From the sequence record NC_004928.1: DNA of 64,000 nt; one strand, given 5' to 3'. This document shows positions 4,081 through 58,430 of this stretch, piece by piece. The translations under genes were made by a program, and so were the position numbers. The stretch's first letter is position 1. Each line of letters starts with the position of its first letter. This DNA is from Escherichia phage RB69. Below the pieces are notes generated by a model that did not search any database, had not been told where the DNA came from, and saw nothing but the letters and a program-made list of their open reading frames with translations.

Positions 4081-5649
4081 ATGACTACTATCAAAACTAA
4101 AGCTCAGCTCGTAGACAAATGGAAAGAACTGCTGGAAGGTGAAGGCCTGCCGGAAATCGCTAATAGCAAGCAGGCTATTATCGCTAAAATCTTCGAAAAC
4201 CAGGAAAAAGATTTCGAAGTATCCCCTGAATATAAAGACGAGAAAATCGCTCAGGCATTTGGTTCTTTCTTGACCGAAGCTGAAATTGGTGGTGACCACG
4301 GTTATAATGCTCAGAACATCGCAGCAGGTCAAACCTCTGGTGCAGTAACCCAGATTGGGCCGGCAGTTATGGGTATGGTTCGTCGTGCTATTCCTAATCT
4401 GATCGCTTTTGATATTTGTGGTGTTCAGCCTATGAACAGCCCTACCGGTCAGGTATTTGCTCTCCGTGCAGTATATGGTAAAGACCCTATCGCTGCTGGC
4501 GCTAAAGAAGCTTTCCATCCGATGTATGCTCCGGATGCAATGTTCTCTGGTCAGGGCGCTGCTAAGAAATTCCCAGCGCTGGCTGCTAGCACACAAACTA
4601 AAGTAGGTGATATCTATACTCACTTCTTCCAGGAAACTGGTACTGTATATCTGCAAGCTTCTGCTCAAGTAACAATTAGTTCAAGTGCTGATGATGCAGC
4701 TAAATTAGATGCAGAAATTATCAAACAAATGGAAGCTGGCGCACTGGTAGAAATCGCTGAAGGTATGGCTACTTCTATCGCTGAACTTCAGGAAGGCTTC
4801 AATGGTTCTACCGACAACCCGTGGAACGAAATGGGCTTCCGTATCGACAAACAAGTTATTGAAGCTAAATCTCGTCAGCTGAAAGCAGCTTACTCCATCG
4901 AATTGGCACAAGACCTCCGTGCAGTACACGGTATGGATGCTGATGCTGAACTGAGCGGTATTCTTGCTACTGAAATTATGCTGGAAATCAACCGTGAAGT
5001 TGTTGACTGGATTAACTACTCCGCTCAGGTTGGTAAATCTGGTATGACTAATATCGTTGGTTCTAAAGCTGGTGTATTTGACTTCCAAGACCCGATTGAT
5101 ATTCGTGGTGCTCGTTGGGCCGGTGAAAGCTTTAAAGCTCTGTTGTTCCAGATTGATAAAGAAGCAGTTGAAATTGCTCGTCAAACCGGTCGTGGTGAAG
5201 GCAACTTTATTATCGCTTCCCGTAACGTAGTTAACGTACTGGCATCAGTCGATACTGGTATTTCTTACGCTGCACAGGGTCTGGCTTCTGGTTTTAATAC
5301 CGACACTACTAAGTCTGTATTTGCCGGTGTACTTGGTGGTAAATACCGCGTATACATCGACCAGTATGCTAAACAGGATTACTTCACTGTTGGTTATAAA
5401 GGCGCTAACGAAATGGATGCAGGTATTTACTACGCTCCTTACGTTGCACTTACCCCACTGCGTGGTTCCGATCCTAAGAACTTCCAGCCGGTAATGGGCT
5501 TTAAAACTCGTTATGGTATCGGTGTTAACCCGTTTGCTGAAAGTTCCCTGCAGGCTCCAGGTGCTCGCATCCAGTCCGGTATGCCGTCTATCCTGAACAG
5601 CCTTGGTAAGAACGCTTACTTCCGCCGTGTATATGTAAAAGGCATCTAA
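4081..5649 (+). CDS. 23: major capsid protein gp23
   Basis: 522 aa, near-identical to recalled T4 gp23 along whole length. Confidence 0.98.
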   Translation: MTTIKTKAQLVDKWKELLEGEGLPEIANSKQAIIAKIFENQEKDFEVSPEYKDEKIAQAFGSFLTEAEIGGDHGYNAQNIAAGQTSGAVTQIGPAVMGMVRRAIPNLIAFDICGVQPMNSPTGQVFALRAVYGKDPIAAGAKEAFHPMYAPDAMFSGQGAAKKFPALAASTQTKVGDIYTHFFQETGTVYLQASAQVTISSSADDAAKLDAEIIKQMEAGALVEIAEGMATSIAELQEGFNGSTDNPWNEMGFRIDKQVIEAKSRQLKAAYSIELAQDLRAVHGMDADAELSGILATEIMLEINREVVDWINYSAQVGKSGMTNIVGSKAGVFDFQDPIDIRGARWAGESFKALLFQIDKEAVEIARQTGRGEGNFIIASRNVVNVLASVDTGISYAAQGLASGFNTDTTKSVFAGVLGGKYRVYIDQYAKQDYFTVGYKGANEMDAGIYYAPYVALTPLRGSDPKNFQPVMGFKTRYGIGVNPFAESSLQAPGARIQSGMPSILNSLGKNAYFRRVYVKGI

Positions 5650-49634: not shown

Positions 49635-50759
49635 ATGGAAAAATTTATGGCAAGGTTTGGACAGGGATACGTCCAAACGCCGTTTTTATCGGAAAGCAAT
49701 TCAGTTAGATTTAAGCTAAGTATAGCGGGTTCATGCCCGCTTTCAACAACTAATCCGTATATTTTGTTCCAAAACGAGCCTTTAGGGTTGCAGTCTTTTG
49801 GTATTGGACTAAATGTTAGGGTGATAAATCCGGAAAATGGAACTATAGTTGATAGTAAATTATACAATTTTGCGCCTACAAATAATGCAACTTCAGCTGC
49901 ATTTATTTCGTTTGTTAATACATACGCAGATAATTTCATTTTCGCATTTATTTCTAATAACAAATTTAATTTGCCGCCAGAAATAATTGAATGGTTTAAA
50001 GCTGCTGGGAGTTCAGTTATACCGTCAATTGAAGTTGCTAGTCTTGTTGATATTTCATATTCAGCGTTTTATGTTTCAGGTAAAAATACTATTGCATTAG
50101 AACACATAAAATACAGTAATAAGAAAACAATTTCTGATTACGCAACTCCATTAGATATTGTATATGACTCTATTGCTGATATAGGTGCTACCGGCTATCC
50201 TAGACGTACATATGAAGCTCTAGAAACGTTTTTATCTCCTGTTGGAGGAACTAACAATGAAATAAAAAGGGTGCCTACATCATCCCTTGTTACTCCTATC
50301 GCAAACTATGGATTAAAGCCTACAGATTTTCTTTATTTGAAATTTCAATTAATGGCTGATGAAGAATTATTAGAGGAAGGAACCACAAGACTTTCAATTC
50401 GTTTCTTTAAGTCTCCATCTAGCTCTCCTATATCATCTAAAGATATAAACTTTGATGGAACTGCCGGGGAGTGGAAGCTATATGAAGAATACGTTGAAAT
50501 ACCAGCTGAAGCTGATGGCTTTACAGTATATTGTTACCGTACGGCCTCAGTCGGTCAAGGTGGACTAAGAAATGTTATTTTCACTGAAGTATCATGTAAC
50601 GGAAGTATAGCAAAACCCGCCGAGTTTGGTATAAACGGTATTCGTGTTAATTACATTGATGAATCATTAACCGGTAATGATATAATGGACTTGCCTACTC
50701 AGTTATCTAACGACACAGGTAAGGTATTTGGGCAGGAATTTAAAGAGTACACAGAATAA
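49635..50759 (+). CDS. 35: long tail fibre hinge protein gp35
   Basis: 374 aa, MEKFMARFGQGYVQTP as recalled for T4 gp35. Confidence 0.92.
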   Translation: MEKFMARFGQGYVQTPFLSESNSVRFKLSIAGSCPLSTTNPYILFQNEPLGLQSFGIGLNVRVINPENGTIVDSKLYNFAPTNNATSAAFISFVNTYADNFIFAFISNNKFNLPPEIIEWFKAAGSSVIPSIEVASLVDISYSAFYVSGKNTIALEHIKYSNKKTISDYATPLDIVYDSIADIGATGYPRRTYEALETFLSPVGGTNNEIKRVPTSSLVTPIANYGLKPTDFLYLKFQLMADEELLEEGTTRLSIRFFKSPSSSPISSKDINFDGTAGEWKLYEEYVEIPAEADGFTVYCYRTASVGQGGLRNVIFTEVSCNGSIAKPAEFGINGIRVNYIDESLTGNDIMDLPTQLSNDTGKVFGQEFKEYTE

Positions 50760-50760
50760 A

Positions 50761-50780
50761 GGAGACTTCGGTCTCCTTTT
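50761..50780 (+). terminator. C(UUCG)G hairpin plus T-run after gene 35
   Basis: ggagac-ttcg-gtctcc-tttt. Confidence 0.7.
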
Positions 50781-50784
50781 CGCG

Positions 50785-50792
50785 TATAAATA
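50785..50792 (+). promoter_or_regulatory. late promoter TATAAATA upstream of gene 36
   Basis: Exact TATAAATA. Confidence 0.6.
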
Positions 50793-50818
50793 CTTTAATA
50801 TTAATAAGGAGACACGAA

Positions 50819-51475
50819 ATGGCCGATTTAAAAGCCGGAAGTACAGTTGGTGGTTCCGTCATATGGCATCAAGGCAATTTTCCTTTAATGCCAGCTGGCG
50901 ACGACATCCTATATAAAACATTTAAATTATACACTGAATATAACAAGCCAAAAGCGGCTGATAACGATTTCGTATCTAAAGCAAATGGTGGGACATATCT
51001 CAAAAAGGTAATCTTTAACGAAGGTGTTGCAGTCAAAACAGCAGATGACCAAACGAATGGTATTTTTTCTGGTGGTGGTGACGCCGCGACATTCGACCAA
51101 ACAAACATGGATATTGTTTCGTGGTATGGTATTGGGTTTAAATCATCTCAAGGTACAGGTGAAAGAACTGTTGTAATTGATACTCGCACCGGTAATATAA
51201 GTTCTAAAGGCGTTATTGAAGCATCTCAATTCAGAGCCACAACGTTAGCACCTTTAAATAATTACGACCTTACTCGCAAAGATTATGTTGATAGTCAAAT
51301 AAATACAGTTAATGCTAATGCAAACAGTCGTGTACTCCGTTCAGGAGATACGATGACCGGCGCGCTAACCGCCCCAAACTTTTTCTCACAGAATCCTGCA
51401 TCTCAACCCTCGCATGTTCCACGATTTGATCAAATTGTTATTAAGGATTCTGTTCAAGATTTCGGCTATTATTAA
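50819..51475 (+). CDS. 36: long tail fibre distal connector gp36
   Basis: 218 aa; TATAAATA at 50785-50792. Confidence 0.92.
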   Translation: MADLKAGSTVGGSVIWHQGNFPLMPAGDDILYKTFKLYTEYNKPKAADNDFVSKANGGTYLKKVIFNEGVAVKTADDQTNGIFSGGGDAATFDQTNMDIVSWYGIGFKSSQGTGERTVVIDTRTGNISSKGVIEASQFRATTLAPLNNYDLTRKDYVDSQINTVNANANSRVLRSGDTMTGALTAPNFFSQNPASQPSHVPRFDQIVIKDSVQDFGYY

Positions 51476-51483
51476 GAGGACTT

Positions 51484-54400
51484 ATGGCTACTTTAAAACA
51501 AATACAATTTAAAAGAAGCAAAACTGCAGGAGCACGTCCTGCCGCTTCAGTATTAGCCGAAGGTGAATTGGCTATAAACTTAAAAGACCGTGTACTTTTT
51601 ACTAAAGATGACCAAGGAAATATTATTGATCTGGGTTTTGCTAAAGGTGGTAGTATTGACGGGAATGTTATTCATACTGGCAATTATAACCAAACTGGCG
51701 ATTATACTTTAAATGGCACCTTCACTCAGACAGGTAATTTTAATTTAACCGGTATTGCTCGAGTAACTCGTGATATTATTGCCGCTGGGCAGATTATGAC
51801 TGAAGGCGGTGAACTTATTACAAAAAGTTCAGGTACAGCACATGTTCGTTTTCATGATTCGGCTGATCGTGAACGTGGCATTATTTATGCACCGGCTAAT
51901 GATGGATTAACTACGCAAGTAGTTAATATCCGCGTTAAAGACTACGCCGCTGGTGATGAAAGCACCTATGCATTTTCGGGCAGTGGACTATTTACTTCAC
52001 CTGAAGTGTCAGCATGGAAATCTATGTCAACTCCTCAGATTTTGACAAATAGAGTTATTACTAATAATAAATCTACGAGCGATTATGACATTTATTCTAT
52101 GGCAGACAACGTTCCATTGTCTGAAAGCACTACTGCTATTAATCATCTCCGTGTTATGCGCAATGCTGTAGGCGCTGGTGTATTCCATGAAGTTAAAGAT
52201 AATGATGGAATAACTTGGTATACTGGAGATGGCTTAGACACTTATCTTTGGTCGTTTACCTGGTCCGGTGGATTGAAAGCAGGCCATTCTATTTCTGTTG
52301 GTACTCCTGGTGGCAATAAAGGATACTCTGAATTAGGGACTGCTTCAATTTCTCTTGGCGATAATGATACAGGCTTAAAATGGCATCAAGATGGATATTA
52401 TTTCAGCGTTAATAATGGAATAAAAACGTTTTTATTTAGTCCCAACGAAACAACTAGCCTAAGAAAATTTGTAGCTGGATATTCTACCACCGGAACCGAT
52501 TTAACTACTCCTCCAACTGAAAACTATGCTTTGGCCACTGTTGTTACTTACCATGATAATAACGCGTTTGGAGACGGTCAGACTCTTTTAGGATATTATC
52601 AAGGCGGTAACTATCATCATTATTTTCGCGGTAAGGGTACTACAAACATTAATACTCACGGCGGTTTGTTAGTTACTCCAGGTAATATTGATGTTATTGG
52701 CGGTTCTGTTAATATCGATGGTAGAAATAATTCTTCTACACTGATGTTTAGAGGTAACACGACCGGAGCTAGTTCAGTTGATAATATGACAATTTCCGTT
52801 TGGGGCAATACGTTTACTAATCCTAATGTAGGTAATCGTAAAAACGTCATGGAAATTTCTGATGCAACTAGCTGGATGAGCTATATTCAAAGACTTACTA
52901 CTGGTGAAGTAGAAATGAACGTTAATGGTTCATTTGAATCATCTGGTGTTACTGCTGGAGATAGGGGAGTTCACACAACAGGCGAAATTTCATCTGGGGC
53001 TGTGAATGCGCTTCGTATTTGGAATAATGATTATGGAGCCATTTTTAGACGTTCAGAAGGCAGTCTTCATATTATTCCAACTGCTTATGGTGAAGGTAAA
53101 CATGGTGATATCGGTCCACTTCGCCCGTTTAGTATGGCTTTAGATACCGGTAAAGTTACTATTCCAGATTTACAATCAAGTTACAATACGTTCGCTGCGA
53201 ACGGCTATATTAAATTTGTTGGTCATGGCGCTGGCGCTGGTGGTTATGATATTCAATATGTTCAAGCGGCTCCTATTTTCCAGGAAATCGATGATGATGC
53301 TGTAAGTAAATATTATCCTATTGTTAAGCAGAAGTTTTTAAACGGTAAAGCAGTTTGGTCTTTAGGTACTGAAATTAATTCGGGTACATTTGTTTTACAC
53401 CATATCAAAGAAGATGGATCACAAGGCCATACATCTCGTTTTAATCAAGACGGCACAGTTAATTTCCCTGATAATGTTCAGGTTGGTGGTGGTGAAGCTA
53501 CTATTGCTCGCAACGGTAACATCTGGTCTGATATCTGGAAAACGTTTACTTCTGCCGGTGATGTAACTAATATCCATGACGCTATTGCTACTCGTGTTGC
53601 CAAAGAAGGTGATACGATGACAGGCCGCTTAACTCTTAATGCAAACTCGGATGTTATTGTTATTAACAGTGCTGCAACCGAATCTGGCTATTTGAAAGGA
53701 CAAAAAGCCGGCGTTGATAACTGGTATGTAGGTAATGGTGGGGCTGATAATGCCATATCGTTTTATAGTTTCCGAAATAATTCAGGCATAAATGTTAATA
53801 ATGGTGGCGATATTGCTTTAAACCCAGAAGGGTCCGCCACTTTTAATTTTAATAAGGACCGACTTTATATAAATGGTTCGGTTTGGACCTCACACCAGGC
53901 CGGCGATTGGGGAAATCAATGGCGCCAGGAAGCTCCTGTATTTGTGGATTTTGGCTACGTCGGTAATGATAGTTATTATCCAATTATCAAAGGAAAATCT
54001 GGTATTACTAACGAAGGATATTTTTCAGGCGTTGATTTTGGTATGCGACGCATTCCTAATAACTGGGCACAAGGTATTATTCGTGTTGGTAACCAGGAAA
54101 ATGCTAGCGATCCGCAAGCTATCTTCGAATTCCACCATAATGGAAACATGTACGTTCCTGACATGGTTAAAGCTGGAGTAAGATTATCAGCTGGTGGAGG
54201 TGACCCTGCATGGACAGGCGCATGTGTTGTTATTGGTGATAATGACACTGGGTTAGTTCATGGCGGTGACGGTCGTATTAACATGGTTGCAAATGGAGTG
54301 CATATTGCTTCGTGGTCAGCTGCTTATCAGATCCATGAAGGTCTTTGGGATTCAACTGGTGCTTTATGGACTGAAACAGGAAGAGCTATTATTTCTTATG

Positions 54401-54795
54401 GGCATTTAGTCCAACAAAGTGATGCCTATTCCACATATGTCCGCGATGTTTATGTCCGCTCTGATATTCGTGTTAAAAAGAACCTCGTTAAATTTGAAAA
54501 TGCTTCTGAGAAGCTTTCTAAAATTAACGGTTACACTTATATGCAGAAGCGAGGCCTAGATGAAGAAGGCAATCAGAAATGGGAACCTAACGCCGGTTTA
54601 ATTGCTCAAGAAGTTCAAGCTATTTTACCAGAATTAGTTGAAGGCGACCCGGATGGTGAAGCTTTACTTCGTTTGAACTATAACGGTGTAATTGGTTTAA
54701 ATACAGCTGCAATCAATGAGCATACTGCAGAAATTGCAGAACTTAAGTCAGAGATTGAAGAGCTTAAAAAATTAGTTAAATCATTGTTAAAATAA
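51484..54795 (+). CDS. 37: long tail fibre distal subunit gp37 with C-terminal intramolecular-chaperone-like domain
   Basis: 1103 aa; C-terminal SDIRVKKNL...coiled coil resembles S74-type chaperone domain. Confidence 0.93.
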
Positions 54796-54800
54796 TAAGA

Positions 54801-54814
54801 GGGGCTTCGGCCCC
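54801..54814 (+). terminator. intercistronic C(UUCG)G hairpin between 37 and 38 (attenuator or stabiliser)
   Basis: ggggc-ttcg-gcccc immediately followed by the gp38 RBS, no T-run. Confidence 0.45.
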
Positions 54815-54826
54815 TTGGAGGTGTAT

Positions 54827-55600
54827 ATGGCAGTTGAAGGACCGTGGGTAGGATGGTCTGCAAGGGTACAGACTGGAGATCCTTGGATGGGTGGTGCCGC
54901 ACAGAGATTGAGAATGGGAATTCCGTTTTGGATGAGTAATATGATAGGTCGATCTGTTGAAGTAATTCACACGCTTGGAGCAGACCATAACTTCAATGGT
55001 CAATGGTTCCGAGATAGATGTTTTGAGGCAGGTAGTGCACCTATAGTGTTTAATATCACCGGAAATTTGGTATCATATAGTAAAGATGTTCCATTATTCT
55101 TTATGTATGGCGATACACCAAATGAATATGTTACTTTGAATATTCATGGTGGAGTTCATATGTGGGGACGAGGTGGTAACGGTACTGTAAACGGAAACCC
55201 AGGCACAAATGGCGGCGATGTAATCCAAAATGATATCGGCGGAAGACTTCGTATTTGGAACTATGGCGTTATTGCATCAGGCGGCGGTGGTGGTGGTGCA
55301 GTGTCATTACAGAATAGCTGGGCGCCAAATGCTACAGCAGGCGGCGGTGGTGGTAGACCATTTGGCATCGGCGGAGGCGGCGTTAATTGGCCGGGTGGTA
55401 ATGCTAGTTATGACGCCCCGGGCGGTGCCGGTTACACTTCCCAATTCGGCGGAGGCAATGGCGGTGATGCTGGAGGTCGGGGCGGAGATGGATGGGGTAA
55501 TCACTTATCTAGATCTGGCGGTGGTGCTCCTGGCAGAGCAGTATTCGGAAGTTCACCGTCATGGGGTGCTACAGGCACAATCTACGGCTCCTGGATTTAA
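54827..55600 (+). CDS. 38: receptor-recognising tail fibre tip adhesin gp38 (T2/T6 type, glycine-rich motifs)
   Basis: Track ORF 54815 is TTG; ATG at 54827 (MAVEGPW) follows GGAGG; several poly-Gly motifs. Confidence 0.9.
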
Positions 55601-55618
55601 ACGATAATACCTCTCAAT

Positions 55619-55626
55619 TATAAATA
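55619..55626 (+). promoter_or_regulatory. late promoter TATAAATA upstream of t
   Basis: Exact TATAAATA. Confidence 0.6.
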
Positions 55627-55645
55627 TTGATAAATGGGAGGTAAT

Positions 55646-56305
55646 ATGGCAGCACCAAAAGTATCATTTTCGCCTAGTGATATTTTATTTGGGTTGCTAG
55701 ACCGCATTTTCAAAGATAACGCCTCTGGAAATATTCTTATTTCAAGAGTTGCTGTTGTAGTTCTTTTGTTCCTAATGGCACTAATATGGTACAAAGGGAA
55801 TATTTTTATGGATTATTACGTGAGGTCGAAATATGATACTTACACAGAAGTAATTCAAAAAGAAAGAAATACACGATTTGAATCTGCGGCTTTAGAACAA
55901 CTACAAATAGTCCACGTCACATCAAGGGCGGATTTTAGTTCGGTGTATTCTTTCAGACCTAAAAATCTAAATTATTTCGTCGACCTTATTGCGTATGAAG
56001 GTAAGTTACCTAGCACAGTAACTGAAAAATCTATGGGAGGATTTCCTGTCGATAAAACGACAGCAGAATATTCGGTCCATTTAAGTGGACTTCACTTTAC
56101 TTCTAAAACAGATTTTGCTTTCTTACCTACCAAATCAAAAACTCCGGAACTGGCATATATGTATAGTTGTCCTTACTTCAATTTGGATAACATATATGCG
56201 GGAACTGTTTCTATGTATTGGTATAAGGGGTCGGATGTGTTAAATGAAGAACGCTTGGCTGCAATATGCAACCAAGCAGCAAGGATATTAGGGCGGGCTA
56301 AATAA
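55646..56305 (+). CDS. t: holin T
   Basis: Track ORF 55634; ATG at 55646 (MAAPKVSF) follows GGAGG; N-terminal TM helix; T4 T similarity. Confidence 0.93.
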   Translation: MAAPKVSFSPSDILFGLLDRIFKDNASGNILISRVAVVVLLFLMALIWYKGNIFMDYYVRSKYDTYTEVIQKERNTRFESAALEQLQIVHVTSRADFSSVYSFRPKNLNYFVDLIAYEGKLPSTVTEKSMGGFPVDKTTAEYSVHLSGLHFTSKTDFAFLPTKSKTPELAYMYSCPYFNLDNIYAGTVSMYWYKGSDVLNEERLAAICNQAARILGRAK

Positions 56306-56578
56306 TTAGTTGTTAGAATACATCGTCAAATGGCGATAAATATTTTCAAAACCTTCATTGAATTCACTAATCAGTGTTTTCTTTTCTTCGGCAGTTAAAT
56401 TTGTAATTAGTTTTCTGAACGAATTCTGATTTAGCTGCCGACCATCTTTTTTAATTCCAATCTCATTCAAGAATCCGATGAAATTTGCTCGGTCTTCAAC
56501 AATATCTTCCCTAGAGAATTTAATCAAAATAGAAGCAATAGTAATAATTTCACGTACGATTTCAATGTCTTTATTCAT
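56306..56578 (-). CDS. asiA: anti-sigma70 factor AsiA
   Basis: 90 aa, near-identical to recalled T4 AsiA. Confidence 0.95.
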   Translation of the reverse strand: MNKDIEIVREIITIASILIKFSREDIVEDRANFIGFLNEIGIKKDGRQLNQNSFRKLITNLTAEEKKTLISEFNEGFENIYRHLTMYSNN

Positions 56579-56625
56579 AACGTTTTATTCATTCCATTTG
56601 GTTCGATATGAGTATAGTACCATTA

Positions 56626-56787
56626 TCAGTGTTGATTGTAAACAGCTTTTTCTACACTTTTAACGTAATCAGTGTAGTCTTCCTGTTCATACGAGTGTAA
56701 GGCCAAGAACGTGGCTAATAGTTCATTATAGACTAAAGCCTCACGCTCACGTTCGGCCTCTACTACGTTCTGAAGATTATGACTCAT
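56626..56787 (-). CDS. hypothetical small protein
   Basis: Track ORF to 56841; Met at 56787 preceded by AAGGAA RBS. Confidence 0.45.
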   Translation of the reverse strand: MSHNLQNVVEAEREREALVYNELLATFLALHSYEQEDYTDYVKSVEKAVYNQH

Positions 56788-57076
56788 ATTGTTCCTTATA
56801 ACTATCAATGTAGTCCTGTATGTCGAAGAATGACATTTCATATTCTAGGACATTAAGAGCCCGTTCTTCAGTATAGTCAGAACCAAATACGATAGTGATT
56901 TCACCAGGCTTCATACGATCGAAATCAACACTAAAATGAATACGAGAACATACTTCGTCTGCCATATCTGCAACAACACTACGATACACTTCTCGGTTAA
57001 CCTGATAAAGCTCTGCAAGTTCTTCACATCGAATAACAAGTTCAGTGGCAGGATTTTCTTTTATTTTAGTAAGCAT
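56777..57076 (-). CDS. acidic small protein, possibly Arn-like anti-restriction protein (positional guess)
   Basis: Track ORF to 57163; Met at 57076 gives about 99 aa, net acidic; T4 arn lies between asiA and motA. Confidence 0.4.
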   Translation of the reverse strand: MLTKIKENPATELVIRCEELAELYQVNREVYRSVVADMADEVCSRIHFSVDFDRMKPGEITIVFGSDYTEERALNVLEYEMSFFDIQDYIDSYKEQYES

Positions 57077-57159
57077 AGTCTTTACCCTTATGTTTTTGTT
57101 TGCGTTTAGATTGAAGTTCCGATTTCTTCTTGTCCTTATGGACGGAAGCCTTATTGAAA

Positions 57160-57378
57160 TCATGTTTTGCTACAAGATTGTTCATAATGATTTATAACCT
57201 CATTTAAACATTTATCGGTAAAAGAAAACTTTTTAGCCACAGAACATTCGATAATGTGTTCTTTCAAATCTTTAGAGTCAGTATAACCCATCTCAGTAAT
57301 AAAGTGGCGAATTAAAGCTTTATTCTTATCATTAACAGAATTAAAATAATCTGCTTTAGAATCAATTATTCTCATCAT
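57160..57378 (-). CDS. hypothetical protein
   Basis: 72 aa ORF. Confidence 0.5.
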   Translation of the reverse strand: MMRIIDSKADYFNSVNDKNKALIRHFITEMGYTDSKDLKEHIIECSVAKKFSFTDKCLNEVINHYEQSCSKT

Positions 57379-57643
57379 CTAATTTCCTTAATTGATATTG
57401 CAACGAGCTAATAATTTCTTCGTTCATTTTAATATACATGTCACGCAAGAAAGGTTTTAACCCTTCACGAATAATTGCTAATGTATCACCTTTACATAAA
57501 TTAACCAAATACGGATGATCTAAAGCGTCCCAACCAGGCTGATTAGCATACATGCCATAGTTTTCTTCCATCATATGATTAAGACGTTTGATATCTTGGA
57601 TACGTGATTCAATAGCATCTTTCTGGAGTTGTTTAATATTCAT
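57362..57643 (-). CDS. hypothetical protein
   Basis: 93 aa ORF. Confidence 0.5.
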   Translation of the reverse strand: MNIKQLQKDAIESRIQDIKRLNHMMEENYGMYANQPGWDALDHPYLVNLCKGDTLAIIREGLKPFLRDMYIKMNEEIISSLQYQLRKLDDENN

Positions 57644-58104
57644 TAATAAAGGTCCTCTGAATAAAGTTCTTTCTCACTTCCACCACGTTCAATACGTACC
57701 TGTCCAGCATACGTTGCAATAATCATTGCTTCTTCACGCGTCCAGTAATTAGAGTATTGGTCAATAAAGCCTTGGTCGTCACCACAAACTTGTTGCGAGA
57801 CTAATTGAGGACCAACTATATCAAGTACTTCAGCCATATCTTTAGAGTAATGACGAACTCCAGGAATAATCAGAGTTCCGCCGCTCTTCAATTTAAATCT
57901 ATTAGCTGCACATACTATAACACGTTGAACTTTTTGGTCATTGTTCCAATAGCACGTTTGCCAACAGATTTCAGGAACTTCATTCATTATATCATCAGCA
58001 GAATAATTATAACCGTAGGACTGGAATTTTTCTGCTAGACTTTCAGGAGTCTCACGAGACAAGGCCAAATCTAATAGCTCTAAACGTTCTTTAAATGATT
58101 TCAT
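57643..58104 (-). CDS. hypothetical protein
   Basis: 153 aa ORF. Confidence 0.55.
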
Positions 58105-58430
58105 TTAAGCCATTCCTTAATACGTTGCCAAATAGATTTTTGTGATTGTTTATTTACACCAATCGAACGAATAACCGGTTGTGACTGCTGATATTCTTTA
58201 TAATCTTCTTTATAGATTTCGTAAGCTGCATCAACAAATGAACTGATCGCTGCCATGTAGTTTTTACGAAGGCCAAATGGCGCGTCATTATTTTCACGAA
58301 TAACCGTATATTGGCCTGCTTTAATCTTTACAATTGTCCCTAAATAAGCCCCGTGGTACCAAATATCCCATCCTTCCTGAGTAGGTTCTGCACATTTACG
58401 AAGTTCGTTAATAATATTCAGCTTATTCAT
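58101..58430 (-). CDS. hypothetical protein
   Basis: 109 aa ORF. Confidence 0.55.

Follow-up and report, generated by a model that had tools for sequence, protein, structure and literature searches.

Gene 38 of the window (the whole 64,000-nucleotide stretch of DNA analysed here) lies at 54827..55600 on the plus strand and very probably encodes a tip adhesin of the long tail fibre, gp38, that docks on gp37, is likely to bind the porin OmpF and is carried on a mobile cassette made up of the gene 37 tip and gene 38. Judged by its sequence, the product is a member of the known gp38 tail-fibre adhesin family and belongs to the OmpF type. Family membership, gene context, the identity of the loops to those of phage RB51 and the mosaic pattern of the locus were computed directly. 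An initial annotation had called the protein a T2/T6-type adhesin; this description is right for the architecture but not for the allele, which is 47% identical to T2 gp38 and 62% identical to T6 gp38 and is instead that of RB51 and Bas47. The appropriate label for the gene is 'long tail fibre tip adhesin gp38 (RB51/OmpF type)'.

The open reading frame and its translation run from an ATG at 54827 to a TAA at 55598-55600 and comprise 257 amino acids plus the stop codon, with a GGAGG ribosome-binding site (54817-54821) positioned 5 nt 5' of the ATG. The mechanically generated ORF list places the start at a TTG at 54815; this candidate was rejected, as it adjoins the ribosome-binding site and all homologues start with MAV. 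Two ORFs in other frames across the gene, 55230-55607 on the plus strand (125 aa) and 55307-55504 on the minus strand (65 aa), were also rejected as genes; such overlapping frames arise because a stretch rich in glycine codons has few stop codons. The GC content of codons 111-257 is 56%, compared with 38% for the window. Between the gene 37 stop and the gene 38 ribosome-binding site, the sequence forms an intergenic C(UUCG)G hairpin on the plus strand (GGGGC-UUCG-GCCCC, 54801-54814), with a fold energy of -13 kcal/mol and a z-score of only -1.75. Each of the 13 relatives examined, among them T4 with its unrelated gene 38, has a hairpin in the same place between genes 37 and 38, and its stem and loop differ among them (T2, GAGGGC-TTCG-GCCCTC; T6, GGGGC-TTT-GCCCC; S16, GAGCC-TACG-GGCTC; CEV1, GGGGC-TGAA-GCCCC). 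The possibility of a terminator was rejected: because no T-run follows the hairpin, it is read as an mRNA element, and it looks like one with a putative function in mRNA stability or processing.

The adhesin assignment is carried by profile and structure matches. Pfam GP38 (PF05268) matches aa 45-257 of gp38 across profile positions 1-218 of 218 (6e-83, 278 bits, cut-off 25), and Pfam Gp38_N (PF21721) matches aa 1-40 (6e-20, 71 bits, cut-off 25). The protein is also a match to PHROG 2056, 'tail fiber protein; host specificity' (1e-106), and to two solved adhesin structures, namely the receptor-binding domain of PP01 gp38 (PDB 9V85; E=5e-74, aa 37-256) and full-length S16 gp38 complexed with the gp37 tip (PDB 6F45 chain D; E=2e-47, gp38 aa 1-257). 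The surrounding gene order, with genes assigned by Pfam and PHROG, is g35-g36-g37-g38-t-asiA, in which g37 (51484-54795), g38 and the holin gene t (55646-56305) all lie on the plus strand. The same order, with g38 between g37 and t, is found in T2, T6, S16, PP01 and RB51.

T4 also carries a gene 38 in this position, and its product is of another kind. If the window protein were a T4-type assembly chaperone, it would aid the folding of gp37 from outside the virion and gp37 itself would bind the receptor, as in T4, where gp38 is not part of the virion and gp37 is the receptor binder (PMC6851490). The identical gene position speaks for this reading, as do the records of homologues, which are often labelled 'distal long tail fiber assembly catalyst' or 'assembly chaperone'; these labels, however, derive from T4 naming. 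The two proteins are alike in gene name and in location between g37 and t only: their sequences are unrelated, T4 gp38 (NP_049864) having no similarity to window gp38 (best BLASTP E-value 1.4, over 9 residues) and a length of 183 aa against 257 aa. Both Pfam adhesin families and both adhesin crystal structures match the window protein, and the window gp37 terminates with a self-cleaving chaperone domain and lacks a T4-type receptor-binding tip. In T6, moreover, gene 38 amber mutants produce virions of normal morphology that do not adsorb (Trojet 2011, PMC3157838), a defect that runs counter to a role in assembly. A T4-type chaperone is consequently a vanishingly improbable identity for this protein. 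The view of the initial annotation that gp38 is an adhesin and not the T4 chaperone holds, because there is no detectable likeness to T4 gp38: the check for an alignment with a T4-type chaperone came out negative, whereas the two Pfam families and the solved adhesins match. On many deposited adhesin homologues, 'assembly catalyst' and 'chaperone' are misnomers taken over from the unrelated T4 protein.

The anatomy of gp38 was delimited in an alignment of the window protein with 12 adhesins (13 sequences in all). The N-terminal attachment domain (aa 1-44, 54827..54958, plus strand) contains the Gp38_N match and is predicted to dock on the tip of the gp37 trimer. Residues W7, W20 and W35 are invariant in 13/13 of the aligned adhesins, and in S16 three conserved Trp residues of gp38 fit into pockets of gp37 (PMC6851490). 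The central segment (aa 45-113, 54959..55165, plus strand) corresponds in alignment to the beta-helical part of gp38 in PP01 and S16 and shares 68/69 residues with RB51, 60/69 with T6 and 24/69 with T2. It is followed by the specificity region (aa 114-239, 55166..55543, plus strand), in which five glycine-rich motifs (GRMs) alternate with four hypervariable segments (HVSs), a scheme that is that of Trojet 2011 (PMC3157838). On the plus strand, the motifs are GRM1 (aa 114-119, 55166-55183), GRM2 (aa 152-157, 55280-55297), GRM3 (aa 172-180, 55340-55366), GRM4 (aa 210-213, 55454-55465) and GRM5 (aa 232-239, 55520-55543), and the segments between them are HVS1 (55184-55279), HVS2 (55298-55339), HVS3 (55367-55453) and HVS4 (55466-55519). 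All five GRMs are invariant or nearly so, and in the same order, in each of the 13 aligned adhesins, while the identity of the HVSs with those of T2, T6, PP01 and S16 ranges from 1/14 to 20/32 residues. The alignment with T2, T6 and S16 gp38 that had been proposed as a check thus gives five constant glycine-rich motifs separated by segments that differ. The further claim that these segments specify the receptor agrees with published genetics, in which porin specificity is set there (Trojet 2011, PMC3157838; bioRxiv 10.64898/2026.04.02.716166).

The poly-Gly motifs that the initial annotation had reported in the C-terminal half are all present, as 4/4 of its quoted strings occur in the 257-aa ORF: GGGGGGAVS (aa 152-160, nt 55280-55306), a second string of 22 aa (aa 171-192, nt 55337-55402), a third of 18 aa (aa 208-225, nt 55448-55501) and SGGGAPGRA (aa 230-238, nt 55514-55540), all on the plus strand. 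Its list lacked GRGGNG (aa 114-119), which is conserved as well. Glycine makes up 65/257 residues of gp38 (25%), with 35% in aa 111-257 versus 13% in aa 1-110. Runs of at least four Gly number three in a six-frame translation of the whole window, all of them in gene 38, and the richest 147-aa stretch of gp38 contains 36% Gly versus 18% in gp37, the next-richest ORF. This enrichment is far above chance.

The solved structures of S16 and PP01 gp38 show the glycine motifs packed as a lattice of polyglycine-II helices and the variable segments folded into five loops at the distal end (PMC6851490, PMC12892980). Loops A-E of PP01 map on the window protein at aa 120-125, 161-170, 183-188, 203-207 and 220-229. 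With 71% and 48% identity to the two crystal structures, window gp38 is predicted to adopt the same fold, a beta-helix joined to a polyglycine-II sandwich. This assignment rests on identity to the solved structures because the AlphaFold2 model from the single gp38 sequence is unusable (mean pLDDT 30, pTM 0.17). At the DNA level, no excess of identical codons among identical residues is seen in the GRMs relative to the rest of the gene when the window is compared with PP01, T6, T2 and S16, and because this excess is lacking in all four comparisons, a role of GRM DNA as recombination sites is unsupported.

Gene 37 (51484..54795, plus strand) encodes the distal long-tail-fibre subunit of 1103 aa, identified by PHROG 1699 (E=0) and by Pfam gp37_trimer and Gp34_trimer. 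Its C-terminal portion (aa 993-1103, 54460..54795, plus strand) is assigned as an intramolecular chaperone by Pfam Peptidase_S74, whose match (8e-13, aa 993-1052) begins exactly at S993. The surrounding sequence, DVYVR^SDIRVKK, aligns with the cleavage site of S16, DLNVS^SDRRIKK, and with the predicted site of fPS phages, DVYIR^SDGRLKI. By this alignment, gp37 is predicted to be cleaved after R992 and to lose its last 111 residues.

The receptor of gp38 is most probably OmpF, because the loops of the window protein are identical to those of RB51. Over aa 45-257 the two proteins differ at one position (N80D), and HVS1 to HVS4 are identical at 32/32, 14/14, 29/29 and 18/18 residues, respectively. 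Near-identical domains occur in several other phages: relative to the window, the differences over aa 45-257 are S70G, I181L and R217W in Bas47 (I181L and R217W within HVSs), V46I, I181L and an ambiguous residue at 206 in fPS-2, and V46I, N80D and I181L in FL31, and fPS-90 is 98.6% identical over aa 111-257. RB69, the type phage of Mosigvirus, is said to need OmpF. For RB51, OmpF was identified as the receptor by RB-TnSeq in a preprint (bioRxiv 10.64898/2026.04.02.716166), and on a receptor-mutant panel the phage needed OmpF and also FhuA and a full LPS core (Trojet 2011, PMC3157838). Dependence of Bas47 on ompF has been published with complementation, and in Yersinia the receptors of fPS-2 and fPS-90 are OmpF and LPS. 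FL31 loses about 1 log on an ompF mutant and on a tolC mutant, the ompF drop being under its authors' own threshold. The initial annotation had regarded gp38 as the likely host-range determinant; this stands for the primary receptor, which gp38 sets, whereas the full host range also depends on the step involving the short tail fibres and LPS, and on host defences.

Prediction of a receptor from sequence identity is fragile here, because a single residue can change the receptor; N80D, for its part, would sit in the beta-helix. Codon 206 (55442..55444, plus strand) lies in the part of HVS3 equivalent to loop D and reads CAA (Gln), its middle position, gene nt 617, being the A at 55443 of the window. 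According to a preprint, Q206L (A617T) retargets RB51 from OmpF to OmpW, and L206Q returns RB68 to OmpF (bioRxiv 10.64898/2026.04.02.716166). The window protein thus carries Q206, the OmpF state. The sequence therefore also predicts possible retargeting to OmpW by one mutation.

The sources for RB68 are themselves divided at this residue. The GenBank record (KM607004) reads CAA (Gln206) at 4616-4618 and has a gene 38 identical to that of RB51, whereas the RB68 stock of the 2026 preprint has Leu206 and is an OmpW user (bioRxiv 10.64898/2026.04.02.716166), so that record and stock differ at the decisive position. In the fPS-2 record (LR215722), nt 623 of gene 38 (locus ~5623), equivalent to 55443 of the window, is ambiguous and the codon reads CNA; this base could stem from a phage population that was mixed at the switch position. 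A tentative and rather doubtful idea is that nt 617 repeatedly flips in nature between the OmpF and the OmpW state and is kept polymorphic within phage populations. If it is true, the phage would be one transversion away from a second receptor and could overcome ompF-based host resistance in one step. A pattern scan of IMG/VR for L206 (CTA) variants gave 0 matches for either state, and a megablast search with a 56-nt probe carrying the T matched 28 phage records, all of them below 99% identity and none with a Leu codon.

A different reading of these receptor data is that gp38 is an adhesin which, on its natural host, needs something other than just OmpF: OmpW, a porin variant, or a combination of OmpF and one of FhuA, TolC and the LPS core. 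OmpF may indeed not suffice, because RB51 also needs FhuA and the full LPS core in one study (Trojet 2011, PMC3157838), and the loss of merely 1 log by FL31 on ompF and tolC mutants alike points the same way, although LPS and TolC may exert their effects indirectly, via porin expression or the short tail fibres. The ability of Q206L alone to retarget this allele to OmpW, the ambiguous base of fPS-2 at exactly the switch nucleotide and the infection of O157:H7, LF82, Shigella and Yersinia by carriers of the allele also favour it. Against these stand the CAA codon of the window, the absence of an L206 codon from all 28 matched phage records, and the OmpF dependence reported by three independent laboratories for identical or near-identical binding domains, in two cases with complementation. 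A receptor other than OmpF alone is therefore unlikely, and OmpF is retained as the most probable one. O157:H7 or LF82 served as isolation host for many phages with this allele, and the OmpF loops of these strains may differ from those of K-12. With OmpF as the predicted primary receptor, resistant hosts would be expected to arise by mutations affecting ompF or ompR and the LPS core. Such a prediction is useful for phage cocktails, because phages with a common receptor should not be combined.

The backbone of the window is that of a PhAPEC2-like Mosigvirus, with about 95-96% identity over 24 kb to phiC120, SF and PhAPEC2. To resolve the mosaic structure, 51484-55600 was compared with its flanks at 49635-51475 and 55634-58430. 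The products of genes 35 and 36, t, asiA and the downstream genes are 96-99% identical to those of the Mosigviruses FL31, Bas46, CEV1 and LF82-1 and 64-78% identical to those of Tequatroviruses. The tip and chaperone part of g37, by contrast, is 94-97% identical to FL31, CEV1 and LF82-1 and about 96% identical to the Tequatroviruses RB51, RB68 and ECP52, with no detectable match to Bas46 in this part. Segment by segment, g38 is 83-99% identical to FL31, Bas46, CEV1 and LF82-1 (71% for the N-terminal segment of Bas46) and 88-97% identical to RB51, RB68 and ECP52, and the middle of g37 is merely 80-90% identical to any relative compared. Because the tip and g38 are near-identical to those of Tequatroviruses and the flanks only to those of Mosigviruses, the g37-tip/g38 cassette is common to both genera. 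As a unit, this cassette has 95-97% identity to that of RB51.

Within the cassette, two classes of gp37 tip occur. Class I (DVYVR^SDIRVKK) is found in the window, RB51, FL31, PP01, ECP52, CEV1 and LF82-1, and class II (DVYIR^SD.RLKI) in T6, fPS-2 and Bas46. The class of the gp38 attachment domain co-segregates with that of the gp37 tip and chaperone, and one receptor-binding domain occurs on both tip classes. The attachment domain with the gp37 tip on the one hand and the receptor-binding domain on the other can be told apart as two modules. The binding domain itself is widely distributed: 13 phage records match aa 111-257 at 100% identity, and 52 do so at 95% or more. Across codons 45-257, the window and RB51 differ by 22 synonymous changes and 1 non-synonymous change, so selection has preserved the gp38 protein. 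The HVSs differ between allele classes, and within the RB51-type class selection has held them constant. Both the mosaic across genera and the modular behaviour are of a known kind, described before.

In the proposed scheme, gp37 would trimerise with the aid of its own C-terminal chaperone domain, whose removal after R992 would expose a hydrophobic tip. The attachment domain of gp38 (aa 1-44) would then dock on this tip through the Trp prongs W7, W20 and W35, so that a monomeric gp38 caps the long tail fibre. Beyond aa 44, gp38 would continue as a beta-helix, with the glycine-rich motifs packed as a polyglycine-II lattice that displays the variable loops at the far end, where they would bind an outer-membrane porin, most probably OmpF. 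This reversible binding would constitute the first step of adsorption, after which the short tail fibres would engage the LPS core. The g37-tip/g38 module would serve as a cassette that recombines between genera of T-even phages, with an RB51-type cassette residing in a PhAPEC2-like Mosigvirus. For the fold, the cleavage of gp37, the docking and the binding to OmpF, this scheme draws by analogy on homologues.

Several features accompany the cassette. At its downstream edge, a T4-type late-promoter motif, TATAAATA (55619..55626, plus strand), lies upstream of the holin gene t, and a late promoter is annotated at the matching position in fPS-2. The start of t differs between the ORF list, which uses the ATG at 55634 (MGGNMAAPK...), and the GGGAGG site, which fits the ATG at 55646 (MAAPK...); homologues of the gene are 657-660 nt long. 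The long-tail-fibre hinge protein gp35 (49635-50759) matches Pfam ILEI (Interleukin-like EMT inducer, PF15711) at aa 58-131, with E=6e-7 and 30.2 bits against a cut-off of 27.

The family, fold and mechanism of gp38 and the receptor of this allele have already been published, and a protein with one different residue (that of ECP52) has already been deposited. What is added here is which allele the window carries, which receptor it probably uses, which residue acts as the switch and that the locus is of mosaic origin, none of it being new biology.

Among the relatives compared, the closest gp38 proteins are those of ECP52 (99.6% overall identity), CEV1 (98.8%) and RB51 (97.3%). The single difference of ECP52 (ON782582) is N80D, and CEV1 (KM389393) has three differences; both share with the window the N-terminal variant containing W10. 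The genes flanking the ECP52 cassette are Tequatrovirus-like and 72-78% identical to those of the window. RB51 (FJ839693 / NC_012635) has a gp38 of 257 aa, as in the window, with identical HVSs, GRMs and Q206, and its gp37 tip and chaperone belong to the same DVYVR^SDIRVKK class; from the window to RB51, the attachment domain shows six changes in aa 4-19 (E4T, W10S, R13V, Q15N, D18Q and P19N). RB51 is, however, a Tequatrovirus, unlike the Mosigvirus of the window, and its flanking genes are only 64-77% identical. Bas47 AlbertHofmann (Mosigvirus phapec2; MZ501047) shares the genus-level backbone of the window and has a gp38 that is 89% identical overall, but its attachment domain is T6-like (MAVVGIPGWIG...).

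More distant adhesins keep the architecture and change the loops. The gp38 of PP01 (9V85), which binds OmpC(O157), is 71% identical and has the GRMs, the attachment-domain class and the gp37-tip class in common with the window, with a fold that is probably alike, whereas its loops (4/14 residues identical in HVS2 and 4/21 in HVS4) and its receptor differ. The published receptors are FadL for T2, for which OmpF has also been classically reported, Tsx for T6 and OmpC for S16. The HVSs of these three phages are alleles other than that of the window, and the gp37 tips of T2 and T6 are of other classes; yet their gp38 proteins, at 47% (T2), 62% (T6) and 48% (S16) identity, share with it the same domain order, the five GRMs, the gene position and the partnership with gp37.
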